A stretch of DNA of 64,000 nt from NCBI GenBank assembly GCA_963748215.1, contig CAVVHS010000006.1, forward strand, positions 64,001 through 128,000. The letters are read 5' to 3'. Below, one piece after another: positions 1-18,986 of the stretch. The notes below the pieces were generated by a model. The model was not told the origin of the DNA. It saw only the letters and a program-made list of their open reading frames with translations, and did no database searches. Origin of the DNA: an uncultured Gammaproteobacteria bacterium. Lineage in GTDB: Bacteria; Pseudomonadota; Gammaproteobacteria; UBA9214. The position numbers and the translations under genes were made by a program. Position 1 is the first letter of the stretch, and every line of letters begins with the position of its first letter.

Positions 1-2463
1 GGTGTTATAGGCAAAGGCACCCGCCGGGCTTGGCTCATCGAGGGTCAGAAAGTCCGGGTTGCCGGAGCGGTCCACGCCGTTTTCATCGAGGTCCATCCAG
101 GCCCCTTCATAGATGATGAGCACCCCCGGCATACAACGTTCGGTGACATAGGCGGGTACAACGACCTTGCCTCGCTCATTCCAGACTTCGCAGATATCCC
201 CCATCTTGATTCCCAGCTTTCTGGCATCCGACGCGTTTACGGTGACCTCCTGCTCGTAGGTCTCCCGCAGCCAGCTGCAATTGTTGAAAATCGAATGCGT
301 CCGATGGCGGGGATGCGGCGAGATCAGGTGGAACGGGTATTTGTCTGTTTTCGGACTGTTCAGTGATTCCCATGGCTCGATCCACTTCGGGATAGCCGGG
401 ATATGATAGCCGTACATGGTCTTGGTCCAGTCTGTTATCTGTGCAAGCTGGGTTGAGAGGATCTCGATCTTCCCGGAGGGGGTCTGGAAGGGCAATCCTT
501 TCTCAATCTGGTCCTGAAACGCGACATGTGGTCGGGACAGTTTGAACTTGTAGACACCTCTGCGCTTGAATTCATCCCACGGCATGGTCACGCCCTGATG
601 GGCCATGACCTTGTGCTCCCACCAGTCGCGCAAATAGGCCTCGTCGACATCATCCTCATACTGGAAGTAGTTACGCGTAGCCTTGGGATTGAAGTCGCGG
701 CCAAATTCAGGGCTTATTCGATAGGCCAGTTCAGTGAAGATCTGGAGGTCGGTCTTGCTTTCCCCCAGCGGTTCGATGACTTTGGGACGATGGATGTAGT
801 AATGCCCCTTGTACCACGGCAATGCAGCGTCGTGCCGCTCGAAATGTGTCGCCACCGGCAGCAGCACATCGGCCCAAAGCCCGGACGGTGTAATGGTGGA
901 ATCCATGCACACCACCAGCTCCATCTTCTTGATGGCCTGCAGCTCCTTGTTGATATTGGTGAGCTGGTTCAACCAGTCGGAACCTTGCCAGAAGATACCG
1001 CGGATATTGGGGATCTGTCCGTCAGTTGCATCCTCGCGTGGCCACAGGCCGATCTCTTCGCGCTTGACATTGGGATAGTTCAAAACACAGTGCGCCCAGC
1101 GATCGGACTTGATCGACTGGAACCAGATGTTCGAGTACTTGTCGTAAGGGTAAGCGACAGCCTCCGCGTGCCAGGCTTTGCCCACACCTTCGGCGCAACC
1201 ACCCAGGATGCCGATATTGCCGGTCATGGCCTGCAGTGCCGCTGCCATACGGTTGTATTGTTCGCCGTAGGCGTTACGGCCCGGCGCCCACGAAGCCTTG
1301 AGCGCAGCCGGCTTAGTGGTCGCGTACATATGAGCGAGCTTCTTGATGTCAGCGGCTTCCACGCCGCAAATCCCTGCAGCCCATTCAGGCGTCTTGGGCT
1401 GGCCGTCGGAGTTGCCCAGGATGTAATCCTTGAACGACTCCTTGCCTCTGGCCCAGTCCGGCATGGTACCGGCGTCCATGCCCTGCACGAATCGATTGAT
1501 GAAGGACTGGTCCTGGAGATTGCTGGTGAATATATAGTGCGCCATGCCCGCCAGCATGGCCGCATCGGTATTGGGCCGGATGGGAATCCACCACGCGTCA
1601 TATACCGCGGCCGAATCCGTATATTGCGGGTCGATCAGCACGAACTTGCAGCCTTGCTGTTTGGCCATGCGCATATAATAGAACGTATTGCCGCCATGGA
1701 AGGTATAGGCCGGGTTCCAGCCCCACATGATGATCAGCTTTGAGTATGCAAAGACGTCGTCCTCGTTGCCGTCCTCAATTGTGCCGAAAGTCGTGCGCGA
1801 GCTGAAGGTGGTGCCTTGATAGGAGGGCACTGACCATGAGTTGGTACGGCATCCGAACATTCCGAGGAAACGGGCAAGCAATCCTTCGATCTGGTCGGAT
1901 TTATGCAAAACACCATAAGAGGCGCCCGCATAGCTCTGGTCGAGGAGGGCCGTGGGCCCATACTTGTTCTTGATCTCAACCATCTTGGTGGCAACATGAT
2001 CGAGTGCGGTATCCCAGGAGACACGTTTGAATCTGCCTTCGCCACGTTCCCCGACGCGCATCATGGGATACAGCAGGCGCTCCGCCGAGTAGATGCGCTG
2101 GCGGTATGAGCGGCCGCGCAGACAGGCCCTTAACTGGGGTTCTTCAAATGTGTCCTTGCCGTGTTGACCGTCTGCCTGATAGCTTCCGTCGTCGGTCGAC
2201 AGGCGGACGATGACATCACCCTTTTTGTGGGCCACCAGCATGTGACGGGAACCGCAATTGTGTGCGCAACTGGTGACTACGGTTTCGAGTTCATCATCAC
2301 GTGGATAGGGTTCGTAAGCAAAGGCCCTGGCCTGTTTCGCAGTACGCAGGTCAATAAGGCTGCCGCCGGTCAGGGTCGCGGCGCCAGCAGCAGAGGTCTT
2401 CAGGAATGACCGTCGGGTCATGTTAAGTCGTGATGCGAGCGCCTTCAGTTTATCAGGATCCAT
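1..2463 (-). CDS. Tat-exported DMSO-reductase-family (DmsA-like) molybdopterin oxidoreductase catalytic subunit; 3' end beyond window start
   Basis: Absent from ORF track because no stop lies in the window. Manual translation from ATG at 2463 is open to base 1: MDPDKLKALASRLNMTRRSFLK (Tat), CAHNCGSRH...RACLRGRSYRQRIYSAERLLYPMMRVGERGEGRFKRVSWD, MWGWNPA, WIPIRPNTDAAM, FQTPSGKIEI, HPRHRTHS, C-terminal molydopterin-binding domain. Confidence 0.9.
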   Translation of the reverse strand, partial: MDPDKLKALASRLNMTRRSFLKTSAAGAATLTGGSLIDLRTAKQARAFAYEPYPRDDELETVVTSCAHNCGSRHMLVAHKKGDVIVRLSTDDGSYQADGQHGKDTFEEPQLRACLRGRSYRQRIYSAERLLYPMMRVGERGEGRFKRVSWDTALDHVATKMVEIKNKYGPTALLDQSYAGASYGVLHKSDQIEGLLARFLGMFGCRTNSWSVPSYQGTTFSSRTTFGTIEDGNEDDVFAYSKLIIMWGWNPAYTFHGGNTFYYMRMAKQQGCKFVLIDPQYTDSAAVYDAWWIPIRPNTDAAMLAGMAHYIFTSNLQDQSFINRFVQGMDAGTMPDWARGKESFKDYILGNSDGQPKTPEWAAGICGVEAADIKKLAHMYATTKPAALKASWAPGRNAYGEQYNRMAAALQAMTGNIGILGGCAEGVGKAWHAEAVAYPYDKYSNIWFQSIKSDRWAHCVLNYPNVKREEIGLWPREDATDGQIPNIRGIFWQGSDWLNQLTNINKELQAIKKMELVVCMDSTITPSGLWADVLLPVATHFERHDAALPWYKGHYYIHRPKVIEPLGESKTDLQIFTELAYRISPEFGRDFNPKATRNYFQYEDDVDEAYLRDWWEHKVMAHQGVTMPWDEFKRRGVYKFKLSRPHVAFQDQIEKGLPFQTPSGKIEILSTQLAQITDWTKTMYGYHIPAIPKWIEPWESLNSPKTDKYPFHLISPHPRHRTHSIFNNCSWLRETYEQEVTVNASDARKLGIKMGDICEVWNERGKVVVPAYVTERCMPGVLIIYEGAWMDLDENGVDRSGNPDFLTLDEPSPAGAFAYNT

Positions 2464-2487
2464 GTAGATACCCATTCTGTTCGATGA

Positions 2488-3297
2488 TCACTGTGCTGGT
2501 TGTACGGATTCCCCGGCTATGCCGCCAAGAAAACGTGCCTCCGATTCGCTGGGCCGGTCCTTTGCCCAGTCAGGAATCTGCTCGGCGATACCGGGCCAGC
2601 TATGACGCGGGAAAGGGAAACTGGTCCGGAACCATGCGCGTCCGCCGTGGCAGCCAAAACACACATCTGCATCTTCCTGGCCAGCCTGTTCGATGGCTTC
2701 GGCATTGAGGAAATTAACCTGGTGGCGATGGGTACGGATCGCAATATGGCAGGTCAGACATGAATCACCGAAGGTTTCGCTGACTTCGAGCCACGGGCCG
2801 GGCAGCCCCATGAGCTGGTAATCAAACTTTCCATGACACATCAGGCAGGTCTTCGGATTGACCACCTTGCGCAGCGTGAAGCCGGCATCGTTGCTGGTTG
2901 GCGGGACTGGTGCCTCCTCGCGAGGGTCGTGGCCCTGATGACAGGTGTTGCACTTCATGTCCATCACCCGTTTCGCCAGCGGCGTTACCAGGTGACGCCG
3001 GTGAAAAGTCTCCTGTGGTCCTGCATAGGTGTTCAGAGTCTGGTACCACGCCAGCGCTTCACTGGCCGTAACCCCGGCCGGTGACTGTTCCAGCACCTTG
3101 CGTTCCAGTATTTCCTGATGGCAACCCAGGCACTGTTCATCGCTTGTGCTATCGATTGCCGGTTTAAAATGGCTGGGATCCCAGCGCGCGGCTTCATATG
3201 CCTCTGTATCAGGATCGGCTGCCCGGACATCTATCCAGGCAGTAATCGTGCTTACCATAGCCAGCAGCAGAAAGATGGTTACCTTGACAGTTTGCAT
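2488..3297 (-). CDS. Periplasmic pentaheme cytochrome c
   Basis: Five CxxCH motifs (CLGCH, CNTCH, CLMCH, CLTCH, CFGCH); hydrophobic N-terminus; ATG at 3297 preceded by AAGGA. Confidence 0.9.
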   Translation of the reverse strand: MQTVKVTIFLLLAMVSTITAWIDVRAADPDTEAYEAARWDPSHFKPAIDSTSDEQCLGCHQEILERKVLEQSPAGVTASEALAWYQTLNTYAGPQETFHRRHLVTPLAKRVMDMKCNTCHQGHDPREEAPVPPTSNDAGFTLRKVVNPKTCLMCHGKFDYQLMGLPGPWLEVSETFGDSCLTCHIAIRTHRHQVNFLNAEAIEQAGQEDADVCFGCHGGRAWFRTSFPFPRHSWPGIAEQIPDWAKDRPSESEARFLGGIAGESVQPAQ

Positions 3298-3388
3298 CAA
3301 TCCCGTGTCCTTGAGAAAAGACAAATCAGTTCATGGCGAAAGAGATCAGAGGGTACGTCCCTGTACCCCCAGGATCCCTATTGAACCC

Positions 3389-4741
3389 TCACTCGCCCTT
3401 GGGTGGCGTCCATTCTTTCTTGCCTTCCATGCCCTGCATTCCGGACATACCGCCCATGCCTGACATGCCGGACATACCGCCCATGCCTGACATTCCGGAC
3501 ATACCGCCCATACCTGACATTCCGGACATACCGCCCATACCTGACATTCCAGACATACCACTGGCCGGATAGAAGTAGATCTGGCCCTGGGGTGTGATCT
3601 GGAAATAGCCGGACATACCGCCCATGCCACCCATGCCTCCCATGCCGGACATACCGCCCATGCCGGACATGCCGCCCATGCCGGACATGCCGCCCATGCC
3701 GGACATGCCGCCCATGCCGGACATACCGCCCATGCCACTCATACCGGACATGCCGCTAGGTACCCAGACCCACTGGCCGCCCATGCCTTGCATACCGGAC
3801 ATACCGCCCATGCCTGACATTCCGGACATACCGCCCATGCCTGACATGCCGGACATACCGCCCATGCCGGACATGCCACCCATGCCTGACATGCCGGACA
3901 TACCACCCATGCCGCTCATGCCTGACATGCCGCCCATACCGGACATCCCGCTCATACCACTGGCCGGATAGAAGTAGATCTGGCCCTGGGGTGTGATATT
4001 GAAGTAGCCGGACATACCGCCCATGCCACCCATGCCTTGCATGCCGGACATACCGCCCATGCCTGACATTCCGGACATACCGCCCATGCCACCCATGCCT
4101 TGCATACCGGACATGCCACCCATGCCGCCCATGCCTGACATACCACCCATACCGCCCATGCCACTCATGCCGGACATGCCGCCCATGCCGCTCGGCACAT
4201 AGACCCACTGGCCACTCATGCCTTGCATGCCACCCATACCGCCCATGCCTGACATACCACCCATGCCGCCCATGCCGGACATGCCACCCATGCCACCCAT
4301 GCCTGACATGCCGGACATACCACCCATGCCGCTCATGCCTGACATGCCGCCCATACCGGACATCCCGCTCATACCACTGGCCGGATAGAAGTAGATCTGG
4401 CCCTGGGGTGTGATATTGAAGTAGCCGGACATACCGCCCATGCCACCCATGCCTTGCATGCCGGACATACCACCCATGCCTTGCATGCCGGACATGCCGC
4501 CCATGCCTTGCATGCCGGACATGCCGCCCATGCCTTGCATGCCGGACATACCGCCCATGCCTTCCATGCCGGACATACCTTCCATACCGGACATACCTTC
4601 CATACCGGACATGCCTTCCATACCCGACATGCCGGCCATACCCGCCTCAGCGGAATGGACTTGCGGTGCACCGATCAGAGATCCCATTACGGTAACCAGT
4701 CCGATGATTTTCTTGAAGCGATACATTCGTGACATATTCAT
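3389..4741 (-). CDS. Secreted methionine/glycine-rich repeat protein (450 aa; 113 M-x-G triplets in six blocks separated by aromatic spacers)
   Basis: Strong RBS (GAGGAGAAGGAG) before ATG 4741; Sec-type signal MNMSRMYRFKKIIGLVTVMGSLIGAPQVHS; third-position variation between repeats while the frame stays open. Confidence 0.85.
   Translation of the reverse strand: MNMSRMYRFKKIIGLVTVMGSLIGAPQVHSAEAGMAGMSGMEGMSGMEGMSGMEGMSGMEGMGGMSGMQGMGGMSGMQGMGGMSGMQGMGGMSGMQGMGGMGGMSGYFNITPQGQIYFYPASGMSGMSGMGGMSGMSGMGGMSGMSGMGGMGGMSGMGGMGGMSGMGGMGGMQGMSGQWVYVPSGMGGMSGMSGMGGMGGMSGMGGMGGMSGMQGMGGMGGMSGMSGMGGMSGMQGMGGMGGMSGYFNITPQGQIYFYPASGMSGMSGMGGMSGMSGMGGMSGMSGMGGMSGMGGMSGMSGMGGMSGMSGMGGMSGMQGMGGQWVWVPSGMSGMSGMGGMSGMGGMSGMGGMSGMGGMSGMGGMSGMGGMGGMGGMSGYFQITPQGQIYFYPASGMSGMSGMGGMSGMSGMGGMSGMSGMGGMSGMSGMGGMSGMQGMEGKKEWTPPKGE
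3425..4640. repeat. 9-bp coding tandem repeat with a ~400-bp higher-order unit
   Basis: CATGCC-nnn / CATACC-nnn periodicity; cassette CCACTGGCCGGATAGAAGTAGATCTGGCCCTGGGGTGTGAT occurs three times (~3557, ~3957, ~4374). Confidence 0.95.
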
Positions 4742-4879
4742 ATCTTTCTCCTTCTCCTCAATAATATTCTTCTGAGTTAGACTGCGGTTATCCGCAGTCT
4801 GGTTTGGCACCGGCCTGGCAAACAGGCCGGGGTTTCTTTGCGCCCGCGTAGCGGGTGAGGCTGAGCAGCCAGGCGCCCT

Positions 4880-5200
4880 TCAGTCACCGGTATACCAACC
4901 ACGCATGTCATAATGGCCCGTCATGCCTGGATGGATAAACGGCGTATACCAGTTACCCTGGTCCTCGAGAAAACCGAGGCTGTTGGGGTAGGGCTTGCTT
5001 ACGCCTGTCAGTGCTTGCTGATACCAGACGTCACCCTTGATCACCTGCTTGATGACAGGTGCGTTGTTTGGACGCTCATAAGGTGTGAGACCGGCTATTG
5101 GATACTCTGCCTGCGCAACGCTCCATGCACTGAGCAGTGCAGCCGTAAGTCCGACGGACACTTTTCCCTGTCGATGATGTTTCAACTCACTCCTCCCCAC
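4880..5200 (-). CDS. Small secreted hypothetical protein, first gene of the operon
   Basis: Signal peptide ending AQA; Pro/Gly/aromatic-rich mature part (YPIAGLTPYERP...DQGNWYTPFIHPGMTGHYD); start codon uncertain. Confidence 0.7.
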   Translation of the reverse strand: MGRSELKHHRQGKVSVGLTAALLSAWSVAQAEYPIAGLTPYERPNNAPVIKQVIKGDVWYQQALTGVSKPYPNSLGFLEDQGNWYTPFIHPGMTGHYDMRGWYTGD

Positions 5201-5276
5201 GAGTGAAAGTCACAAGATCATACCGCGCTTTGATTTTCAAAATGCGGTTTGCCTTTAACTCCCTCAAATCTAATGT

Positions 5277-5293
5277 AGCAAACTCTGAGCCAA
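5277..5293 (-). promoter_or_regulatory. sigma54 -24/-12 promoter of the molybdoenzyme operon
   Basis: Minus strand TTGGCTCAGAGTTTGCT, GG-N10-GC spacing, ~75 bp upstream of first gene. Confidence 0.65.
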
Positions 5294-5570
5294 TAGCCGT
5301 CAACTTCCTGCAAGGGTCTGTTGTCAAACGGGTATTAGACTGATTGGCGGGAGCCGGGTGTCGTTCGCCAGTTACTGAAATCTGCCAATTTGGCGAGAGA
5401 AAAGGCTGGATACACACAACCTCATTGATTTGCCTGGAGAATTATTTATGCCAAATTTGCAGGTGATAGTGCGTTTCGCCAGCCGGGAGTGTACAGGCTG
5501 CGCAGCATGCATTTCGACGAGATCCGGGAAGGGTGTTAAGGACTTTTCACCGGATTGTCGGGCAGGAATA

Positions 5571-6374
5571 CTAAAATAAAGGCAACAGCTCGCCGTTCCG
5601 CTTGTTAATGATCAATTCATTACGCAACCTGTAGGGTGGTATTTGGTCAACAATCTTGACAAGATAAATCCAGTTGATGTTGCGAATACCGCCCACGCCA
5701 AGCTCTGTATATCCGGACTCCAAACGCCAGTTTTCACTGATCCGCCATGCCTCTTCGATGGTGTTTACCGGCAACTTTACCCCTGCCGTGAACAGGAATT
5801 CCTGTTGTTCTTCGGCACAATCCGCTTTGGTTGCGGTGGGAAGTGGAAGGGGGTGCGCTGGCGCCAGGAGATGTAAAGCGTTGCTGCCTTCCTGTACCAG
5901 ATTCCAGCTGTAAGCCTCTAACAATTCATGTAATTGCTGCATATCTTCAGATGACACCGTCAATGTGATCGATACAGGTGCCGGTTCCTGTGCCGGTGGA
6001 GTGTCCCGTAATGGCAATAAAAGGGTGGAACCATCAGGGGCGCGCTCTACGCGCCAGCCACGCGTTTCCAGCAGGCTGCGCAGGCTTTCAAAATCGCCGG
6101 TCATCGATGGCTGCGGCACAGTGACATCGTCTGCCTCCGCTGCCTGTGGAGTGTCTCGTAACGGAAATAACAGGGTGGAACCATCAGGGGTACGCTCTAT
6201 ACGCCAGCCCCGCGTTTCCAGCAGGCTGTGCAGGCTTTCAAAATCGCCGGTCATCGATGGCTGCGGTGCAGCGACATCGCTCGCCTCCGCATTCCATGCC
6301 CATATGGCATATCCCGTCAAAGCAAGCACCAGAACCCATCGGAAAGCCTCGTGCCACCGGATCAGAATTTTCAT
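5571..6374 (-). CDS. Secreted/membrane-anchored hypothetical protein with a 50-aa internal duplication and possible PepSY-like C-terminus
   Basis: GAGGAG RBS; N-terminal hydrophobic segment; PQPSMTGDFESLxSLLETRGWRxERxPDGSTLLxPLRDTP twice (DNA 5998-6140 and 6148-6290). Confidence 0.75.
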   Translation of the reverse strand: MKILIRWHEAFRWVLVLALTGYAIWAWNAEASDVAAPQPSMTGDFESLHSLLETRGWRIERTPDGSTLLFPLRDTPQAAEADDVTVPQPSMTGDFESLRSLLETRGWRVERAPDGSTLLLPLRDTPPAQEPAPVSITLTVSSEDMQQLHELLEAYSWNLVQEGSNALHLLAPAHPLPLPTATKADCAEEQQEFLFTAGVKLPVNTIEEAWRISENWRLESGYTELGVGGIRNINWIYLVKIVDQIPPYRLRNELIINKRNGELLPLF

Positions 6375-6486: not shown

Positions 6487-6503
6487 AGCAATTGTCATGC
6501 CAG
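6487..6503 (-). promoter_or_regulatory. sigma54 -24/-12 promoter
   Basis: Minus strand CTGGCATGACAATTGCT, near-perfect consensus, upstream of 6374 gene. Confidence 0.75.
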
Positions 6504-6629: not shown

Positions 6630-8534
6630 ATGAATATAATGCCCACAGCGACCACACGTTGGATAAAGACGAGTCTCAGCCGCAAGTTTCTGTCAGGCGT
6701 CGCTGCAGGGCTGGTCGTGACCTCGCTTGTCTTCCTGTTGTTGTTTATGGCCATGTACCGCGCCCAGTTGCAGTCAGAACGCATCCAGGCCGTAGAAGAT
6801 ATTAATCGGCTGCTGCAGACGTCTCTGGAAAACGCAATGCTCAAGCGGGATCTGGACGGACTGCGCGACATCGTTGCCAGACTCGGTCAACAGGACGGCA
6901 TTGTTGGGGTAATGATCGTCAATCCGGACGGTGAAGTGCGTTTTGCCGCTGATCAGAACATGCTGGGGCACCAATTTTCCAGGGAAACGGATTCAGCCTG
7001 CCGCGTATGTCACTTGAGCGGAAGCATGCCTGACGACACCACTGTTTTTACCGTAAACGAACGGGGGCAGGAGGTCTTGCGCAGCGTTAACCCCGTGCAG
7101 AACAAGGCAGCCTGTATCGGTTGCCATGGCCCGATAGAGACTCATCCTGTCAACGGCGTCCTGTTTGTCGACTACGATGCATTGCCCATTCGTCGTCATG
7201 CGCAACAAACGACTTTGTTACTCATGGGATCCGGTGCCCTGGTGGTGTTGATCACGTTAACGGGTGGCTGGTGGTTTATGCGCCGATTCGTTCTGCAACC
7301 GGTACAGCAGTTGTGCAAAGCCAGCCAGGCGATGTCAGAAGGACAACTTGATGCGCGTGTCCACTTGCCCGTAACAGATGAACTGGGAGAGCTCGGCCGC
7401 ACTTTCAACGTGATGGGAGAACGTCTGGAGCGGAGTATGCGTGAATTACAGGAGAAAGATTTATTCCTGCAAGGCGTTGTGGATGCCATTCCAGACGGTA
7501 TTCGCGTGATAGACGATCAGTTCGCAATTGTGCTGTCCAATCAGGCCTATCGCCAGCAGCTGGGTCTTGCAGAGGAAGAAGAAAGCGCCAGGCCGTGTTA
7601 CCTTTCCAGCCACAAGCGTTATCAACCCTGCCCGCCAACACTGGTACGCTGTCCGCTTCACGAGATCCTGAAAAACGGCGAGCCTGTGAAAGTGCTCGAT
7701 CAGTTTATTGGTGCTGATGGTCGGCCGTTTTCCGTGGAAGTGGTTGCTGCACCCATGCAGATGCCTGTCGGGGATGACTCCAGGACCCTGATCGTGGAAT
7801 CAGTGCGTAATCTCGAAGAACATGTTCTGTTCTCACAGGAACAACGACTTTCAGAACTGGGACGACTCGCGGCTGGTGTGGCCCATGAAATTCACAACCC
7901 GCTGACATCTATACGCCTTGCACTGGACTCGATGGTGAAAGCGGGGAAGCAGGCTGATGGGAACCTTTCCAGGGCATGGGACTATCTTGAGGTTATTGAT
8001 TCACAGGTCGATCAGTGCATCAGCATAACAGAGCGACTCCTGAAAATGAGCCTGTCTCCTGGGCAGCGCCAGGTTGTGGATATGAATGTCGCGGTTGGCG
8101 AGGTTATATCACTGGTTGCATGGGAAGCCGAGAACAAGAGTGTTTCAATCCATCAAAAACTCGATCCAGGCAACCCGCGGGTCATTGCGACTGAAAGCGA
8201 ATTTCGTACTGTGATCCTGAATCTGGTGCAGAATGCCTTTCATGCAATGCCGGATGGTGGACGGATCGACATCTGCACCCGGAAGAATAACGGAAACGTA
8301 ATACTCATCGTCGGGGATACGGGGGTGGGCATTCTCCCTGAAGACCGGCCGCATATCTTCGAGCCTTTCTTCAGTCGCCGTGCTGACGGCGTGAATGGCA
8401 CAGGGCTCGGCTTATCCATTCTTCGGGCAGTTGTCGACCACTATGGCGGACGCATCGAGGTAGAGAGCCAGCGCGGTCAGGGTAGCCGATTCACCGTATT
8501 ATTTCCCGATGCCGATAGCGAGGGAAGGTACTAG
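6630..8534 (+). CDS. Sensor histidine kinase with periplasmic diheme-c domain, HAMP, PAS, HisKA, HATPase
   Basis: Two TM helices flanking CRVCH and CIGCH; DELGELGRTFN (HAMP); GVAHEIHNPL; NLVQNA, DTGVGI, GTGLGL. Confidence 0.92.
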   Translation: MNIMPTATTRWIKTSLSRKFLSGVAAGLVVTSLVFLLLFMAMYRAQLQSERIQAVEDINRLLQTSLENAMLKRDLDGLRDIVARLGQQDGIVGVMIVNPDGEVRFAADQNMLGHQFSRETDSACRVCHLSGSMPDDTTVFTVNERGQEVLRSVNPVQNKAACIGCHGPIETHPVNGVLFVDYDALPIRRHAQQTTLLLMGSGALVVLITLTGGWWFMRRFVLQPVQQLCKASQAMSEGQLDARVHLPVTDELGELGRTFNVMGERLERSMRELQEKDLFLQGVVDAIPDGIRVIDDQFAIVLSNQAYRQQLGLAEEEESARPCYLSSHKRYQPCPPTLVRCPLHEILKNGEPVKVLDQFIGADGRPFSVEVVAAPMQMPVGDDSRTLIVESVRNLEEHVLFSQEQRLSELGRLAAGVAHEIHNPLTSIRLALDSMVKAGKQADGNLSRAWDYLEVIDSQVDQCISITERLLKMSLSPGQRQVVDMNVAVGEVISLVAWEAENKSVSIHQKLDPGNPRVIATESEFRTVILNLVQNAFHAMPDGGRIDICTRKNNGNVILIVGDTGVGILPEDRPHIFEPFFSRRADGVNGTGLGLSILRAVVDHYGGRIEVESQRGQGSRFTVLFPDADSEGRY

Positions 8535-8536
8535 TT

Positions 8537-9883
8537 ATGATAAAAACCATCCTGGTTGTCGAAGACGACAAGATTCTAAACCGGCTCATTGCCGAACACA
8601 TCGAACGCATAGGCTATGCGGTTCGGGCTGCGTACACCTGGGCAGAGGCCGATCAATATCTGGCGCACCATGAACCGGATCTCGTTTTGATGGATGTGCG
8701 ACTGCCGGACGCGAACGGGATGGAACTGCTTCCCCGGTTGGCAGGTGTGCAACCCGTCATTGTTGTCACTGCATACGGATCGGTGAAGGATGCCGTGAAA
8801 GCCATGCATGCAGGGGTCGAAGATTATCTGACCAAACCCATCAGCCTGGATGAATTGGAAATCGTGGTAAAGAGGACGCTGGATAATATCGCCATGCGAG
8901 CGGAACATCAATTTTGCATACAGCGGATGCAGGCCAGTGAAGGCAAAAAGCTCATGATTGGAAACAGCCCGGCCATGCAGGAGGTCCATCGCCTGATTGA
9001 TGCAGTTGCCGGTACCGATATGACCGTGCTTATTCAAGGAGAAAGTGGTGTCGGTAAGGAGCTCGTGGCGAAGACAGTCCATGAGCGCAGTAACCGGTCA
9101 AAATGTAATTTCGTTGCAGTGGACTGCTGCACCCTTCCGGAAAAACTGTTCGAATCCGAATTGTTCGGACACGAACGCGGTGCCTTCACCAGTGCTGACC
9201 GGCAAAAGAAAGGACTTATCGAGGGCGCCGGTGGCGGAAGCCTTTTTCTGGATGAGATAGGCGAAATCGAAATGGCGGTGCAGGCCAAACTGCTGCGCGT
9301 GCTCGAAACCGGGGTGTTTCGCCGGGTCGGAGGAACGAAGGATTTACGCGCCAATGTGCGGATCGTGGCGGCCACGAACAGCGACCTGGAAAAGGCCAGC
9401 CGGGAAGGAAGCTTCCGTTCCGACCTTTACTACCGCCTGAGTGCTTTTATCATTACAGTTCCTCCGTTACGCGAACGCCGTGAGGATATACCCGAACTCG
9501 TTGATTATTTTATAGGTAGTCGCGAATTTTCACGCCGCATCAATACCACGGTATCTCGTAGTGCGATGCGCGCCTTACTGGCCTATGACTGGCCAGGCAA
9601 TGTCAGGGAACTGAAAAACACAATCGAACGCGCCATCATACTTTCCTGGCAGACCAGGAAGATACGTCCAGAACATCTTGCGCCTATGATTGCCAGTACC
9701 GAGTCGTCAAGTTCGGTGACATTGACCTTCGATCATGAGCCGAGTCTTGCCGAGGTTGAGGGAAAGTATCTGCAGATGCTGCTGACGAAGTACTCGGGAC
9801 ATCGTTTGGACATAGCAAAAAGGCTGGGTGTCAGTGAAAGAAATATTTATCGATTGATCGATAAACATCAGCTAAAGAGCTGA
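8537..9883 (+). CDS. sigma54-dependent (NtrC/AtoC-type) response regulator
   Basis: Receiver domain; GESGVGKE Walker A; ESELFGHERGAFTSA; LFLDEIGE; WPGNVREL; Fis-type HTH. Confidence 0.95.
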   Translation: MIKTILVVEDDKILNRLIAEHIERIGYAVRAAYTWAEADQYLAHHEPDLVLMDVRLPDANGMELLPRLAGVQPVIVVTAYGSVKDAVKAMHAGVEDYLTKPISLDELEIVVKRTLDNIAMRAEHQFCIQRMQASEGKKLMIGNSPAMQEVHRLIDAVAGTDMTVLIQGESGVGKELVAKTVHERSNRSKCNFVAVDCCTLPEKLFESELFGHERGAFTSADRQKKGLIEGAGGGSLFLDEIGEIEMAVQAKLLRVLETGVFRRVGGTKDLRANVRIVAATNSDLEKASREGSFRSDLYYRLSAFIITVPPLRERREDIPELVDYFIGSREFSRRINTTVSRSAMRALLAYDWPGNVRELKNTIERAIILSWQTRKIRPEHLAPMIASTESSSSVTLTFDHEPSLAEVEGKYLQMLLTKYSGHRLDIAKRLGVSERNIYRLIDKHQLKS

Positions 9884-9920
9884 CAGCACGACACACAGTG
9901 CTGGGTGATCAGCGGTAACA

Positions 9921-10130
9921 TCCCGGGCTGCAATGCCCTTTACCCGGCAACTGCAAGCGGACCTTCCTTAGTCCGCCGCTCTCCCCGGGATCAATGCACC
10001 CAGGGTAAGATTGACCCATAATGCTTCCTGCAACGCCCGGTAAAGATCATCCGCTAACAGTTCCGTGATCTGGCGGGTAAAGGTCGGCGTCTATAAATGA
10101 TCGTACGCCAGTGAGGTATTCACCAGCGGC
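9921..10130 (-). pseudogene. Decayed 5' half of a RelE/HigB-2-like toxin gene (copy 1)
   Basis: Minus frames give TPTFTRQITELLADDLYRALQEALWVNLTLGALIPG / GLRKVRLQLPGKG, with lost start and frameshifts. Confidence 0.6.
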
Positions 10131-10342
10131 GTAGTACAGGCCAGGATTCAATCCGCGGACAGGTGAATCAGCGGTAGTCATGGCGCGTCTAAAACAAATG
10201 CCGGAAATCAGCAGAAAGAAGAACTTATTGGCCCAAAATTGCAATAATTCTAGACGCAGAATCGTAGTATATAGTTTATATAAAACAGAGAGATAAGTGT
10301 AGTTAGACAATCAGTAGGGGATGAGGGAATGGAACCGAATCT

Positions 10343-10445
10343 GAGGTTCACAAAATTGTCAGGAACAATTTTGAACGCCGCGAAGCGGCGGCCCCGAAGG
10401 GGCGGCGGACAGGGATGTCCGCCGTAAATCCTCTCACCCCGACCA
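10343..10445 (+). other. tRNA-Pro-like 3' fragment (T-arm, acceptor strand, CCA) interrupted in the T-loop by four hairpins
   Basis: GAGGTTCA (10343-10350) ... AATCCTCTCACCCCGACCA (10427-10445); no 5' tRNA half upstream. Confidence 0.65.
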
Positions 10446-10497
10446 ATGGTGAGCTTGATCGGTTCCTGAATATCGAGTCGCCGATTACCTGACCAAG

Positions 10498-10830
10498 GTC
10501 TACGATGTGGCCATTGTCGGGGCCGGTCCGGCCGGTATGTCGGCCGCAATCTATGCCGTGCGCAAGAATCTTTCGAAGCTGATAATTACCTCCGACATTG
10601 GCGGGCAGTTGGGTGCCACCTATGAGGTTGGCAATTACCCATGCATTCAGATGATCACCGGGCCAGACCGTCGAGCAGTTCGAAGTACACCTGGACAAGG
10701 TGCGCAGTGCCGATCGGGTCGAATCACTGACATTGCATGATCCGGTCGAGATTCACGGGTCGGGGCAGGTGGAAGGAGTCACGGTGAACAATCTTCAGAC
10801 AGGCAAGGTCCGAAGACTCGATGTGCAGGG
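10498..10830 (+). pseudogene. Thioredoxin reductase/AhpF-like flavoprotein remnant
   Basis: VYDVAIVGAGPAGMSAAIYAVRK...GGQL...NYP, then after an internal deletion EIHGSGQVEGVTVNNLQTGKVRRLDVQG. Confidence 0.75.
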
Positions 10831-10924
10831 GTACGAGCAATTGGCCGAGAAAAATCGTCCGCTCGGTATAGCGATGAACATCGAACTGGACATGCCTGAA
10901 CATTCATTGGAGGAGGTTGATTGT

Positions 10925-11224
10925 GAAGACTGGCTTGGCAACCAGTCGCCGAACGTATACACGGTATAATTGATTTCAACGTGGCATCCTGATGGTGCTT
11001 GCAAACTGGCACGGCAATACGATCTGGCAGAGTACGTGGTTTGCAGCTCTGCACACGAGGAACACACCCGCCATGCCCTGTTACTCGGTGCTTACCCTGG
11101 TGCCGATGCAGCAAGGGAAGCAATAACGGGTTTGCCGCCTGAGTTAAAAACCGGCAGGCCATGGATTAGAGAAATTACAGGTCTCAAGCAGTTGATGGTA
11201 AGTAACAGCCGGCAAGCCGAGTAA
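10925..11224 (+). pseudogene. SPOR-domain (DamX-like C-terminus) remnant
   Basis: WLGNQSPNVYTV*LIS...HALLLGAYPGADAAREAITGLPPELKTGRPWIREI, with internal stop. Confidence 0.5.
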
Positions 11225-13654: not shown

Positions 13655-14083
13655 ATGCCGGTCTACGAACACATTCTCGCTGCCGTTGATTTGGGCGATC
13701 ATAGCGCAAGGGTGTTGCAGCATGCGCAAGCAATGGCACAATTGTGCGAAGCAGAACTAACCGTCCTGCATGTCGTGAACGATAGCCTGCCTACAGATGT
13801 GGATAACCTGATCGCGCTCGCGGACGATCTCGAAAGCAAGCTGGTTGAGGCTGCTGAGAAACAGCTGCATGAATTGCTGGAGCGGGAAGCACTCACCAGC
13901 AGTGTCCGGACTTCCATCGTGTCCGGACGTCCCAGGGTCGAGATTGTGCACATCGCCGAAAGAGAGAAGGCGGATTTGATCGTCCTGGGCGCGCACGTCC
14001 GGCACGGTCTTGCCGGTCTGTTCGGCTCCACTGCGAGCCACGTACTGACCCAGGCAGCCTGCAATGTACTGGTCGTGCGTTAG
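13655..14083 (+). CDS. Universal stress protein (UspA family)
   Basis: YEHILAAVDLG...ADLIVLGAHVRHGLAGLFGSTASHVL...CNVLVVR; AGGAG RBS. Confidence 0.9.
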   Translation: MPVYEHILAAVDLGDHSARVLQHAQAMAQLCEAELTVLHVVNDSLPTDVDNLIALADDLESKLVEAAEKQLHELLEREALTSSVRTSIVSGRPRVEIVHIAEREKADLIVLGAHVRHGLAGLFGSTASHVLTQAACNVLVVR

Positions 14084-18440: not shown

Positions 18441-18986
18441 ATGATTGAACAGATACAGGCGCAGGTCTTCCTGAAGTATGGATACATCATTCCTGATGAC
18501 TTCCTGTCCGACATGCCTGCCATGAGTATTGCCGGTGACAACGTCGACCGTGACCGGGAGCGGACACCGCACCGCCGGGATATCAGGGTGATACGCAATT
18601 ACATGATTACCTTCGGGCTGGTGAGTACGGTGTTCGATCTGCTGACATTCGGGGTATTGCTGTATCTGGCCGGTGAGGTGGCAGAGATATTCCGCACCGG
18701 CTGGTGCGTGGAATCATTGCTCACTGAATTGCTCATCCTGTTCGTAATCCGCACTTACAAACCGTTTTATCGAAGCCGGCCAGGCCGGTTTCTGGTCTGG
18801 AGCACATCCGGCGTTGCAGTGCTTGCGCTCCTCCTGCCCAATCTACCCCTTGGTGCCGTGTTCGGTTTCGTTCCCCTGCCTGCCACGATACTGGTTTCCA
18901 TACTGTTCATCACGGTGCTGTACGTGGTAACGACCGAACTGGTTAAACGCGCATTTTTCCGGCACTTCATTATGCATCATGGATAG
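18441..18986 (+). pseudogene. C-terminal fragment of MgtA-like P-type Mg2+ ATPase
   Basis: FLSDMPAMSIAGDNVD...FGLVSTVFDLLTF...FRTGWCVESLLTE; no phosphorylation or nucleotide-binding domains. Confidence 0.75.

Follow-up and report, generated by a model that had tools for sequence, protein, structure and literature searches.

Among the described systems that come closest to the one reported here, the MtsZ/MtsY pair of Haemophilus influenzae (TorZ/TorY type) uses the multihaem cytochrome MtsY as its electron donor. Rhodobacter DorA is reported to reduce methionine (Met) sulfoxide that is bound in protein (PMC7402097). In Azospira suillum PS, the secreted Met-rich peptide MrpX is described as strongly induced and oxidised by hypochlorite, and it is encoded together with the periplasmic molybdenum (Mo) enzyme YedY1, which is thought to regenerate it (PMC4436054). 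Here we analyse a 64,000-nt stretch of DNA from an uncultured gammaproteobacterium (the window; GenBank assembly GCA_963748215.1, contig CAVVHS010000006.1, positions 64,001 to 128,000 of the forward strand), in which a secreted protein built from 113 Met-x-Gly triplets, the Met-array protein, is encoded in one operon with a DmsAB-like Mo reductase and a pentahaem cytochrome c. We give about an even chance to the reading, drawn from the comparisons below, that this protein is a periplasmic Met/Met-sulfoxide redox buffer recycled by the DmsAB-type reductase.

The Met-array gene and its product

The gene and its parts are listed below in window coordinates, with the basis of each assignment.

3389..4741, reverse strand: Met-array gene (P0001), encoding the secreted (Met-x-Gly)113 protein of 450 amino acids, stop codon included (open reading frame (ORF) list, translation, homologues)
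4643..4741, reverse strand: signal peptide, residues 1-33 (MNMSRMYRFKKIIGLVTVMGSLIGAPQVHSAEA), Sec type, without a lipobox Cys, putative cleavage site (sequence reading)
4373..4423, reverse strand: spacer 1, YFNITPQGQIYFYPASG, residues 107-123, predicted beta-hairpin (count and AlphaFold)
4187..4210, reverse strand: spacer 2, QWVYVPSG, residues 178-185 (count)
3956..4006, reverse strand: spacer 3, YFNITPQGQIYFYPASG, residues 246-262, predicted beta-hairpin (count and AlphaFold)
3752..3775, reverse strand: spacer 4, QWVWVPSG, residues 323-330 (count)
3557..3607, reverse strand: spacer 5, YFQITPQGQIYFYPASG, residues 379-395, predicted beta-hairpin (count and AlphaFold)
3392..3421, reverse strand: C-terminal tail KKEWTPPKGE (alignment)
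3349..3370, reverse strand: terminator-like hairpin directly 3' of the Met-array stop codon (consensus match only)

The start is read as the ATG at 4741, which is preceded by the Shine-Dalgarno-like GAGGAGAAGGAG; the alternative GTG at 4810 would add 23 residues without signal-peptide logic. The n/h/c layout of the signal peptide recurs in homologues, and AlphaFold places a helix at residues 3-19. At the other end of the gene, the terminator-like hairpin is a possible partial terminator between the Met-array and cytochrome genes, as far as its match to the consensus goes.

The 113 M-x-G triplets form six uninterrupted blocks of 24, 18, 20, 20, 16 and 15 (residues 35-106, 124-177, 186-245, 263-322, 331-378 and 396-440), in which x is S 55 times, G 43, Q 9, E 5 and A once. 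Between the blocks stand two kinds of spacer in alternation, YF(N/Q)ITPQGQIYFYPASG three times and QWV(Y/W)VPSG twice (in order YFNITPQGQIYFYPASG, QWVYVPSG, YFNITPQGQIYFYPASG, QWVWVPSG, YFQITPQGQIYFYPASG), and the chain ends in KKEWTPPKGE. Met makes up 117 of the 450 residues (26.0%) and Cys is absent. The block counts, spacers, alternation, tail and composition had been given in an earlier note made from the DNA letters alone, and a script count reproduced them exactly. The mature chain of 417 residues holds 166 Gly, 113 Met, 60 Ser, 7 Glu and 3 Lys and no Cys, His, Arg, Asp or Leu, that is, 27% Met, 40% Gly and 2.4% charged residues.

Several of these elements are shared with homologues. The spacer motif YFxITPxGxI(F/Y)FYP is kept in gammaproteobacterial forms, spacer 2 has the counterparts NWVWVPSG, HWVWVPAG and YWVPAG, and the tail Trp (W444) is invariant in an alignment of 14 rows, GW(T/N/A)PPxx being the end of many homologues.

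Predicted structure

AlphaFold2, run with the 14-row alignment, gave a mean predicted local distance difference test score (pLDDT) of 42.7 for the Met-array protein. Hairpin strands are predicted at residues 106-110/116-120 (block pLDDT 80), 246-249/255-258 (block pLDDT 82) and 378-382/388-392 (block pLDDT 82), and the Met arrays are predicted without structure (pLDDT 31-40), which implies that their side chains are exposed. The suggestion in the earlier note that the spacers may be beta-hairpins linking flexible Met arrays holds, as a prediction, for the three long spacers; it does not hold for the 8-residue QWVxVPSG spacers, for which the same model gave no confident structure (pLDDT <50). 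The polyglycine-II arrangement also proposed there finds nothing in its favour in the model, which likewise supports neither a globular core nor a collagen helix.

The Pfam Collagen model (PF01391) gives the whole protein 30.8 bits (cut-off 27.2), but no stretch passes by itself; the NCBIfam collagen-adhesin models reach 48-50 bits, against cut-offs of 325-500. The nearest Atlas cluster carries the automatic name collagen-like. In a stable collagen triple helix, the X and Y positions are rich in imino acids or charges. Here X is always Met, Y is S, G, Q, E or A, and none of the 113 triplets contains Pro, so the marginal match and the cluster name probably reflect only the Gly periodicity.

Integrity of the gene

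The amino-acid pattern of the array is held under synonymous drift, because both its codons and the DNA versions of its hexapeptides vary. Gly is encoded by GGC 99 times, GGT 48, GGA 7 and GGG twice, and Ser by six codons. For the 31 copies of the hexapeptide GMGGMS there are 8 DNA versions, and the commonest hexapeptides occur 24-31 times each in 8-12 versions (script count). Tandem Repeats Finder reports periods of 9, 18 and 27 nt with matches of only 63-69%. An exact internal duplication of 183 nt, offset by 417 nt (4471-4289 and 4054-3872; script), marks a recent duplication of a unit, and spacer 3 falls in its second copy. The duplicated stretch is the part of the gene most likely to collapse or expand in assemblies.

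Other reading frames across the repeat are also open; only the MxG frame has a ribosome-binding site, a signal peptide, the conserved spacers and the conserved C-terminal Trp. Twenty-one homologues are intact from signal peptide to stop (125-481 amino acids, 20-30% Met, 29-48% Gly, 0-3 Cys), and they come from loci that were recovered independently of the Met-array protein. Judged by these comparisons, the Met-array ORF is a real gene, the homologues settling the question. The codon counts, the hexapeptide versions and the 21 homologues from other genomes also support the earlier note where it took synonymous variation as a sign of selection on the protein.

Damaged copies are found as well. 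Six of the 37 listed homologues are split over two frames (L015, L028, L029, L044, L051 and L053), among them that of the closest relative with a complete locus (G029 = L015). The earlier note had named frameshifts in close relatives as a sign against the gene; one is present in G029, while 21 homologues are intact. The contigs that hold the six split genes all have names of the form contig_N and come from a few binning series, where four other loci are intact, which makes sequencing or consensus indels plausible and the likelier cause. Runs of N stand inside the array in L033, L046 and L071, and contigs end inside the array gene in L014, L021, L024, L025, L038, L047, L055, L062, L066 and L069. 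Given such breaks, gaps and frameshifts, together with automatic naming as collagen-like, the array gene is probably overlooked or under-reported in many genomes. In practical terms, it is a gene that is systematically damaged in assemblies, by contig breaks, scaffold gaps and frameshifts in long-read bins.

Both ends of the gene are matched by contigs from two independent DNA studies, none of which bridges the array (X5: 3221-3478 with 0 differences and 4524-4705 with 2; X1: 4506-5400). In close relatives, unique parts of the gene are also represented by contigs from RNA libraries, which come from two other studies: a 564-nt contig from X11 lies over 4524-5092 with 25 differing letters, and pieces from X9 lie over 4625-4738, 3917-4036 and 3283-3439, presence in an RNA library not being proof of transcription. 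Summed word depth in the repeat bins reaches up to 60,850 in X9 (RNA), against 0-50 in the flanking cytochrome bins, and 414 in the DNA run X1, against 12-18; such depths pool many organisms, cannot rank genes and serve as a hint only.

The operon and its DmsA-like enzyme

The Met-array gene is the second of seven genes that follow one another on one strand with short gaps, namely ORF106, the Met array, the pentahaem cytochrome c, a DmsA-like protein, a DmsB-like protein, a TorD/DmsD-like chaperone and a polyferredoxin. Two of the genes around the array lie within the window and a third runs out of it.

4880..5185, reverse strand: ORF106, small secreted protein, first gene of the operon (ORF list; likely start TTG at 5185 after GGAGGAG)
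2488..3324, reverse strand: pentahaem cytochrome c with five CxxCH motifs (Pfam; likely start Met10 at 3297 by comparison with G029)
1..2475, reverse strand, continuing beyond the window start: DmsA-like molybdopterin subunit of 856 amino acids with a twin-arginine (TAT) signal (Pfam, NCBIfam and structures; whole gene at 13905..16475 of L002)

In Pfam, the cytochrome matches Cytochrome_C7 (8.1e-9), Paired_CXXCH and, weakly, NapC/NirT (2.1e-6). All 15 Cys and His of its five motifs are invariant in alignment A1, and a search by sequence returned no solved structural relative. No DmsC/NrfD-type membrane anchor was found among the ORFs of the operon, and the pentahaem cytochrome takes that place in the gene order.

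The DmsA-like protein has the domains PF00384 (1.4e-46) and PF01568 (4.1e-20) and a TAT signal (RRSFLK; PF10518, 3.4e-5). Its best family is TIGR02166 (dmsA_ynfE), followed by bisC/TorA. The TIGR02166 score of 601.5 bits lies below the cut-off of 777.7, and from these matches the enzyme is best filed as a divergent relative rather than a member of the curated dmsA_ynfE subfamily. The DmsB-like partner is a four-cluster protein that also scores below its cut-off (TIGR02951, 5.6e-57, 192.3 bits against 214.1), and the chaperone is of the TorD/DmsD type (PF02613, 1.5e-20). The nearest structures are the Rhodobacter dimethyl sulfoxide (DMSO) reductases (1eu1, 1.7e-75; 4dmr, 1dmr), trimethylamine N-oxide (TMAO) reductases and the TMAO/MtsZ-type 7l5i. 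When the enzyme is aligned to 1eu1, the residue paired with Ser147, the Mo ligand, is Ser, and Tyr114 is kept. A Ser ligand is in keeping with S/N-oxide reductases, and with selenate reductases of the YnfE type, but not with the groups that use Cys/Sec or Asp.

Regulatory genes and elements lie upstream of the operon.

5278..5292, reverse strand: sigma-54-type -24/-12 element TGGCTCAGAGTTTGC, 5' of ORF106 (motif)
6488..6502, reverse strand: sigma-54-type element TGGCATGACAATTGC, 5' of ORF267 (motif)
6630..8534, forward strand: sensor histidine kinase, HAMP-PAS-HisKA-HATPase (Pfam)
8537..9883, forward strand: sigma-54-dependent response regulator with receiver, AAA+ and HTH_8 domains (Pfam)

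The kinase and regulator genes are divergent from ORF267. A scan for promoter motifs found no sigma-70-like site on the operon strand. Between its two hydrophobic segments, in the periplasmic part, the kinase carries two CxxCH motifs (CRVCH and CIGCH), and at least one CxxCH stands within the first 230 amino acids in 27 of 31 kinase homologues with an aligned N-terminus. These motifs suggest a periplasmic haem-based sensor of redox state or of a ligand.

Conservation of the cassette

In G058, a genome from another family of the same class, the position directly 5' of a 58%-identical cytochrome is held by a different Met-rich secreted protein, with a GMYGMRGMG repeat. The cytochrome was therefore used as search bait rather than the array, and an alignment of three cytochromes, searched against species-representative genomes, returned 62 loci. 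A separate search of 61 relatives with P0001 itself gave 16 matches, most of the weak ones being unrelated low-complexity frames (e.g., L007), and only those in G029, G030, G003 and G058 were taken as real.

By record title, the carriers include Sedimenticola/Sedimenticolaceae, Ca. Thiodiazotropha and other lucinid symbionts, Thiomargarita, Thioploca, Ca. Parabeggiatoa, Chromatiaceae, Thiohalocapsa, Azonexus/Dechloromonas, Methyloversatilis, Hyphomicrobium and Azospirillum halopraeferens DSM 3675 (L068), as well as one Granulosicoccaceae genome and one Desulfobulbus bin. Searched with tblastn, the 62 loci contain the window's cytochrome in 61 cases, DmsA in 59, DmsB in 56, TorD in 52, ORF106 in 38, polyferredoxin in 34, the kinase in 32, the regulator in 24 and ORF267 in 16, all of which are lower bounds, many loci being truncated. 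DmsA identity across the loci is 72-98%, falling to 25% in L074, a distant locus.

Upstream DNA of 1.5 kb or more is available for 40 loci, and 36 of these have a Met/Gly-rich ORF just 5' of the cytochrome gene and on the same strand. The four without it are L036, L059, L072 and L074; identity in L074 is only 29%, and the gene order differs in L059 and L072. When an M-x-G array is strictly required (8 or more triplets, in runs of no fewer than 3), 31 of the 40 are positive, as are 14 of 21 loci with less upstream DNA; the gap between 36 and 31 is due to the Azonexus-type (GMSGMSGQEGMAGQK) and Thiomargarita-type (GMGMGGMGMY) repeats. Repeat units seen in the homologues include (MxG)n with hairpins, GMYGMRGMG, GMSGMSGQEGMAGQK and plain (MSGMGG)n, hairpin spacers being a feature of the gammaproteobacterial forms. 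On the sequences compared, what is conserved at the locus is Met-richness, secretion and position, not sequence, a pattern that fits selection for a property of the side chain.

The regulatory arrangement recurs too. Of 35 loci examined, 18 have a strict TGGC-N7-TTGC no more than 400 nt 5' of their ORF106 homologue, where 0.037 would be expected per 400 nt.

Outside this position, the loci contain six more arrays. They include second MxG ORFs about 4 kb upstream in two Sedimenticolaceae genomes (L017, 1501-2484; L019, 1498-2319). In three Hyphomicrobium-type loci, MxG ORFs stand between the cytochrome and DmsA genes (L063, 7606-8109; L065, 7764-8231; L067, 4801-5175).

Arrays also occur in other proteins. 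Low complexity defeats word-based protein searching: with P0001 it scored 8000 candidates, gave only 22 hits and passed over the true orthologues; the hits serve only to illustrate how MxG arrays are joined to other proteins. P0011 (608 amino acids) combines Met-rich stretches with a class I cytochrome c and a homologue of the pentahaem cytochrome. NapC/NirT-type (tetrahaem) cytochromes carry (MxG)n tails in P0005 and P0020, arrays occur in OmpA-like and DsrE-like proteins (P0002 and P0004), and shorter ones in CusB-like proteins (P0013, P0016 and P0019) and a multicopper oxidase (P0021). The MxG array behaves as a mobile module.

Proposed function

A secreted thioether array is kept beside an S-oxide reductase, and the simplest account is that the oxidised array is the substrate of the reductase. 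As we picture the cycle, the Sec-exported and largely disordered chain would display about 113 thioethers in the periplasm, where peroxide, hypohalous acids or similar oxidants would convert array Met to Met sulfoxide. The DmsA-like subunit, with its Mo-bis(pyranopterin guanine dinucleotide) (Mo-bisPGD) cofactor, and the DmsB-like iron-sulfur (FeS) subunit from the same operon would then reduce the array Met sulfoxide again. Electrons may pass from quinol or another donor to the pentahaem cytochrome and on through DmsB and DmsA to Met sulfoxide, a route whose direction and source are presumed. The kinase with its haem motifs, as sensor, and the sigma-54 activator may switch the operon on. In favour of this reading stand the gene order of the operon, its recurrence across the loci, the upkeep of Met-richness through changing repeat units, the fusion proteins, the family and Ser ligand of the enzyme, the precedents of MrpX and DorA, the absence of an MsrP-type match from the source genome, the predicted exposure of the arrays and the sigma-54-type elements.

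Several points weigh against the Met-sulfoxide cycle. A 2026 review, in its treatment of Dms- and Dor-type enzymes, has them converting small molecules only (PMC13488963). Dor-type enzymes are reported to need the motif SYGW to reduce sulfoxides (PMC7402097); in the DmsA-like enzyme it reads SYAG, with the Tyr kept and the Trp replaced by Gly. Together with the family score below cut-off, this means that the substrate of the enzyme could be something else. An (MxG)n array is at the same time a run of MxxM, a pattern that binds Cu(I), and similar arrays occur in the CusB-like and multicopper-oxidase proteins. The Met-array gene of the closest relative is split. In Ca. Thiodiazotropha, dmsB and dmsD are reported among the most transcribed orthogroups, with higher levels in the upwelling season, and these transcripts are interpreted, by those authors and by others, as DMSO respiration and not as stress defence (PMC12172469). 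The 'DMSO reductase' of lucinid symbionts is likewise read as an alternative electron sink (bioRxiv 10.64898/2025.12.05.692423; PMC11237559).

Nor does the cassette simply replace MsrP. No MsrP-type enzyme (PF00174, NF003767) was found in the source genome, which is 95% complete. The idea that cassette holders are depleted of MsrP was rejected: NF003767 is over its cut-off in 22 of 55 holders (1 of 5 plus 21 of 50), against 123 of 301 genomes in a class sample that was drawn evenly and that includes the unpublished G079, G157 and G311, none of them over the cut-off.

The transcript data very probably concern this cassette, as the cassette enzyme is the only DmsA-family match above 600 bits in three lucinid-symbiont genomes (next best 217-220 bits), the species being different ones. 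High expression under low oxygen fits respiration better than a pure stress defence, and two further readings are kept on that account: a rechargeable store and a small external substrate.

In the first of these, which we hold to be rather improbable, the array is a 'thioether battery', an abundant chain of about 113 Met that would be loaded with oxygen atoms by oxidants or oxygen and discharged in anoxia as a terminal acceptor. Discharge would run from quinol through the pentahaem cytochrome to DmsAB, the cell respiring a protein-bound sulfoxide pool of its own. If this were true, peroxide or hypohalite would in effect become respirable, and environmental DMSO would not be what the highly transcribed 'DMSO reductase' of lucinid symbionts respires.

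Alternative explanations

The Met-sulfoxide cycle has to be weighed against readings in which the array is not a substrate. DmsAB may respire a small external compound (DMSO, another S- or N-oxide, selenate or chlorate), with the Met array as an accessory that could be a decoy mopping up a reactive by-product or a protectant of haem and Mo proteins. The family of the DmsA-like enzyme includes DMSO and selenate (YnfE) reductases, and the sole family match above 600 bits in the three lucinid-symbiont genomes very probably ties it to a 'DMSO reductase' among the most expressed symbiont genes that is read as an electron sink (bioRxiv 10.64898/2025.12.05.692423; PMC12172469). MrpX itself is reported to protect against a by-product of (per)chlorate respiration (PMC4436054). 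A small substrate leaves unexplained, however, why the enzyme is accompanied across classes by a Met array of such size and not by just any scavenger, and why Met-rich stretches are fused to the partner cytochrome in P0011; the operon also lacks the quinol-oxidising anchor of the DmsC/NrfD type. We regard this explanation as unlikely, though it deserves serious weight.

The earlier note, made without sight of the neighbouring genes, had offered as functions a Cu(I)/Ag(I) sponge, an organic sulfur store or a coat akin to the sulfur-globule proteins (Sgp). The conserved operon of DmsAB, cytochrome and TorD points instead to Met-sulfoxide cycling, on which the note had touched only in proposing to quantify Met sulfoxide; Cu(I) remains as a rival. 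Ctr1-type proteins and Cus/Pco proteins bind Cu(I) through MxxM 'Mets' motifs. The M-x-G register is an unbroken MxxM run in which three thioethers together could bind soft metal ions, and arrays recur in the copper-linked CusB-like and multicopper-oxidase proteins named above; as a periplasmic sponge or chaperone for Cu(I) or Ag(I), one chain could hold dozens of Cu(I). Against this, the conserved cassette has no copper-homeostasis gene, its members being the cytochrome, DmsAB, TorD, polyferredoxin and the sigma-54 two-component system, and the mature chain is without His, a frequent companion of Met in binders of Cu and Ag. A metal-binding role is in our judgement doubtful.

A structural role is quite improbable, whether as an Sgp-like coat of sulfur globules or as a collagen-like or polyglycine-II fibre with hairpin cross-links. 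Sgp proteins are said to be Gly/Tyr-rich. The small Thiomargarita-type forms (L032 and L037) are rich in Gly, Met and Tyr, many carriers store sulfur (Thiomargarita, Thioploca, Chromatiaceae, Sedimenticola and Thiodiazotropha), and Gly at every third residue underlies the collagen-like matches. Yet a stable triple helix is unlikely with no Pro in the triplets and very few charged residues, and the arrays are predicted without structure. The coat is weakened further because the cassette also occurs in records of Hyphomicrobium, Azospirillum halopraeferens, Azonexus and Methyloversatilis, none of which is known to store sulfur globules; nor does a coat protein give any reason for the linkage to DmsAB.

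That the array is no functional gene at all (but a hypervariable repeat that resembles coding sequence, an artefact of assembly or a gene in decay) could draw on the unbridged interior, the exact duplication, the open alternative frames and the split or N-gapped homologues, but is most improbable against the 21 intact homologues, a pattern kept under synonymous change, Shine-Dalgarno site, signal peptide and spacers in the MxG frame only, gene ends and unique parts matched in independent DNA and RNA studies, and splits confined to contig_N records in which sequencing indels are plausible.

Other genes at the locus

For ORF106, the listed start is the GTG at 5200, and the TTG at 5185 is likelier. 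It has no match in Pfam or NCBIfam, and in the Atlas it falls among clusters of hypothetical proteins; an alignment of 28 rows has 15 invariant columns. AlphaFold predicts mostly coil with three short helices (pLDDT 70.8, predicted template modelling score 0.32), which would fit a subunit that folds on a partner. A complex prediction of ORF106 (residues 27-101, alignment A3) with DmsA (46-856, A4) gave no answer (scores 0.00/0.00) and speaks neither for nor against binding. In the Thiotrichaceae locus L033 (11946-12431), as in G058, the ORF106 homologue lies 3' of the chaperone gene and not 5' of the array, and that of L033 has a C-terminal tail rich in Met, Tyr, Pro and Gln.

5571..6374, reverse strand: ORF267, secreted or anchored protein with an internal duplication of about 45 amino acids (ORF list)

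ORF267 has an N-terminal hydrophobic segment and two near-identical repeats of about 45 amino acids (…APQPSMTGDFESL(H/R)SLLETRGWR(I/V)ER…). Its C-terminal domain of about 67 amino acids recurs, flanked by MxG, in the Met-array protein of L016 (6610-6810; 37% over 67 amino acids, E 8e-13, BLASTP). Neither this domain nor the L016 insert gave anything credible in Pfam at E up to 5. ORF267, which has no Pfam family, is probably another part of the module.

Just outside the window and convergent with the last operon gene, L002 encodes at 9637-11214 (forward strand) a secreted protein with a TlpA/ResA-type thioredoxin-like domain and NHL repeats. In 9 of the 62 loci it has a homologue close to the cassette, and the gene may be a further link to extracytoplasmic redox repair. 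Elsewhere in the window, an ORF of 181 amino acids (18441-18986, forward strand) matches only the C-terminal domain of cation-transporting P-type ATPases (PF00689, 5.3e-17) and may be a fragment or a split gene.

Comparison with known systems

No earlier description of a Met array with a DmsAB cassette was found in the literature listings and selected passages searched. The nearest parallel is MrpX with YedY1/YedZ1 (MsrP/MsrQ type), where a Met-rich periplasmic protein with a signal peptide is likewise described beside a TAT-exported Mo enzyme, with sacrificial oxidation of Met, enzymatic re-reduction and a dedicated stress-type regulator proposed (PMC4436054). MrpX is given there as a peptide of small size, in which 20% of the residues are Met and 44% are charged, whereas the Met-array protein, by this published description far more extreme, has 450 amino acids, 2.4% charged residues, a strict M-x-G register and aromatic hairpin spacers. 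MrpX is encoded with yedYZ (msrPQ), the Met array with a DmsAB-type neighbour; the enzymes are, respectively, a YedY of the sulfite-oxidase fold with YedZ and a Mo-bisPGD enzyme of the DMSO-reductase family with an FeS subunit and a pentahaem cytochrome. The regulators differ as well, being an extracytoplasmic function (ECF) pair, SigF/NrsF, in the one case and a sigma-54 two-component system in the other.

MtsZ/MtsY and Rhodobacter DorA resemble the present enzyme as periplasmic Mo-bisPGD S-oxide reductases that accept Met sulfoxide. They are monomeric Dor/Tor-type enzymes without an FeS subunit, in contrast to the DmsA type seen here with its N-terminal Cys-motif domain and DmsB, and they have no dedicated Met-array partner gene. 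MtsZ is reported to prefer free Met sulfoxide (PMC13488963). With DmsABC and YnfEFGH of Escherichia coli, the operon shares TIGR02166 as best family, the TAT signal, a DmsB-like partner and a DmsD/TorD-type chaperone; it departs from them in scoring below the family cut-offs and in having the pentahaem cytochrome, ORF106 and the Met array instead of a DmsC/NrfD anchor.

Mets-motif binders of Cu(I) include the N-termini of Ctr1, CusF/CusB, PcoE/SilE and the Met-rich loops of CopA/CueO. The Met-array protein has their repeated MxxM spacing; unlike them, it has neither His nor Asp in the mature chain, no copper genes in its cassette and an array that is an order of magnitude longer. Sgp of Chromatiaceae and the bacterial collagen-like proteins (Scl and Lcl) are, as here, secreted, of low complexity and periodic in Gly, from which the Met-array protein differs in the lack of Pro in its triplets and the presence of its cassette outside globule-forming lineages.

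If the Met-sulfoxide cycle holds, it would be a second, independently evolved defence by sacrificial methionine plus a Mo reductase, one whose carriers are not pathogens but environmentally dominant sulfur oxidisers and symbionts of animals. It would also provide a natural protein substrate for the DmsAB type of enzyme, whose described substrates are at present all small sulfoxides, and change the interpretation of the highly expressed 'DMSO reductase' in lucinid symbionts and large sulfur bacteria. The logic of a Met-rich periplasmic sink with a Mo reductase is known from MrpX; here it would be built from apparently unrelated parts, with a different protein, enzyme superfamily, electron donor and regulator.

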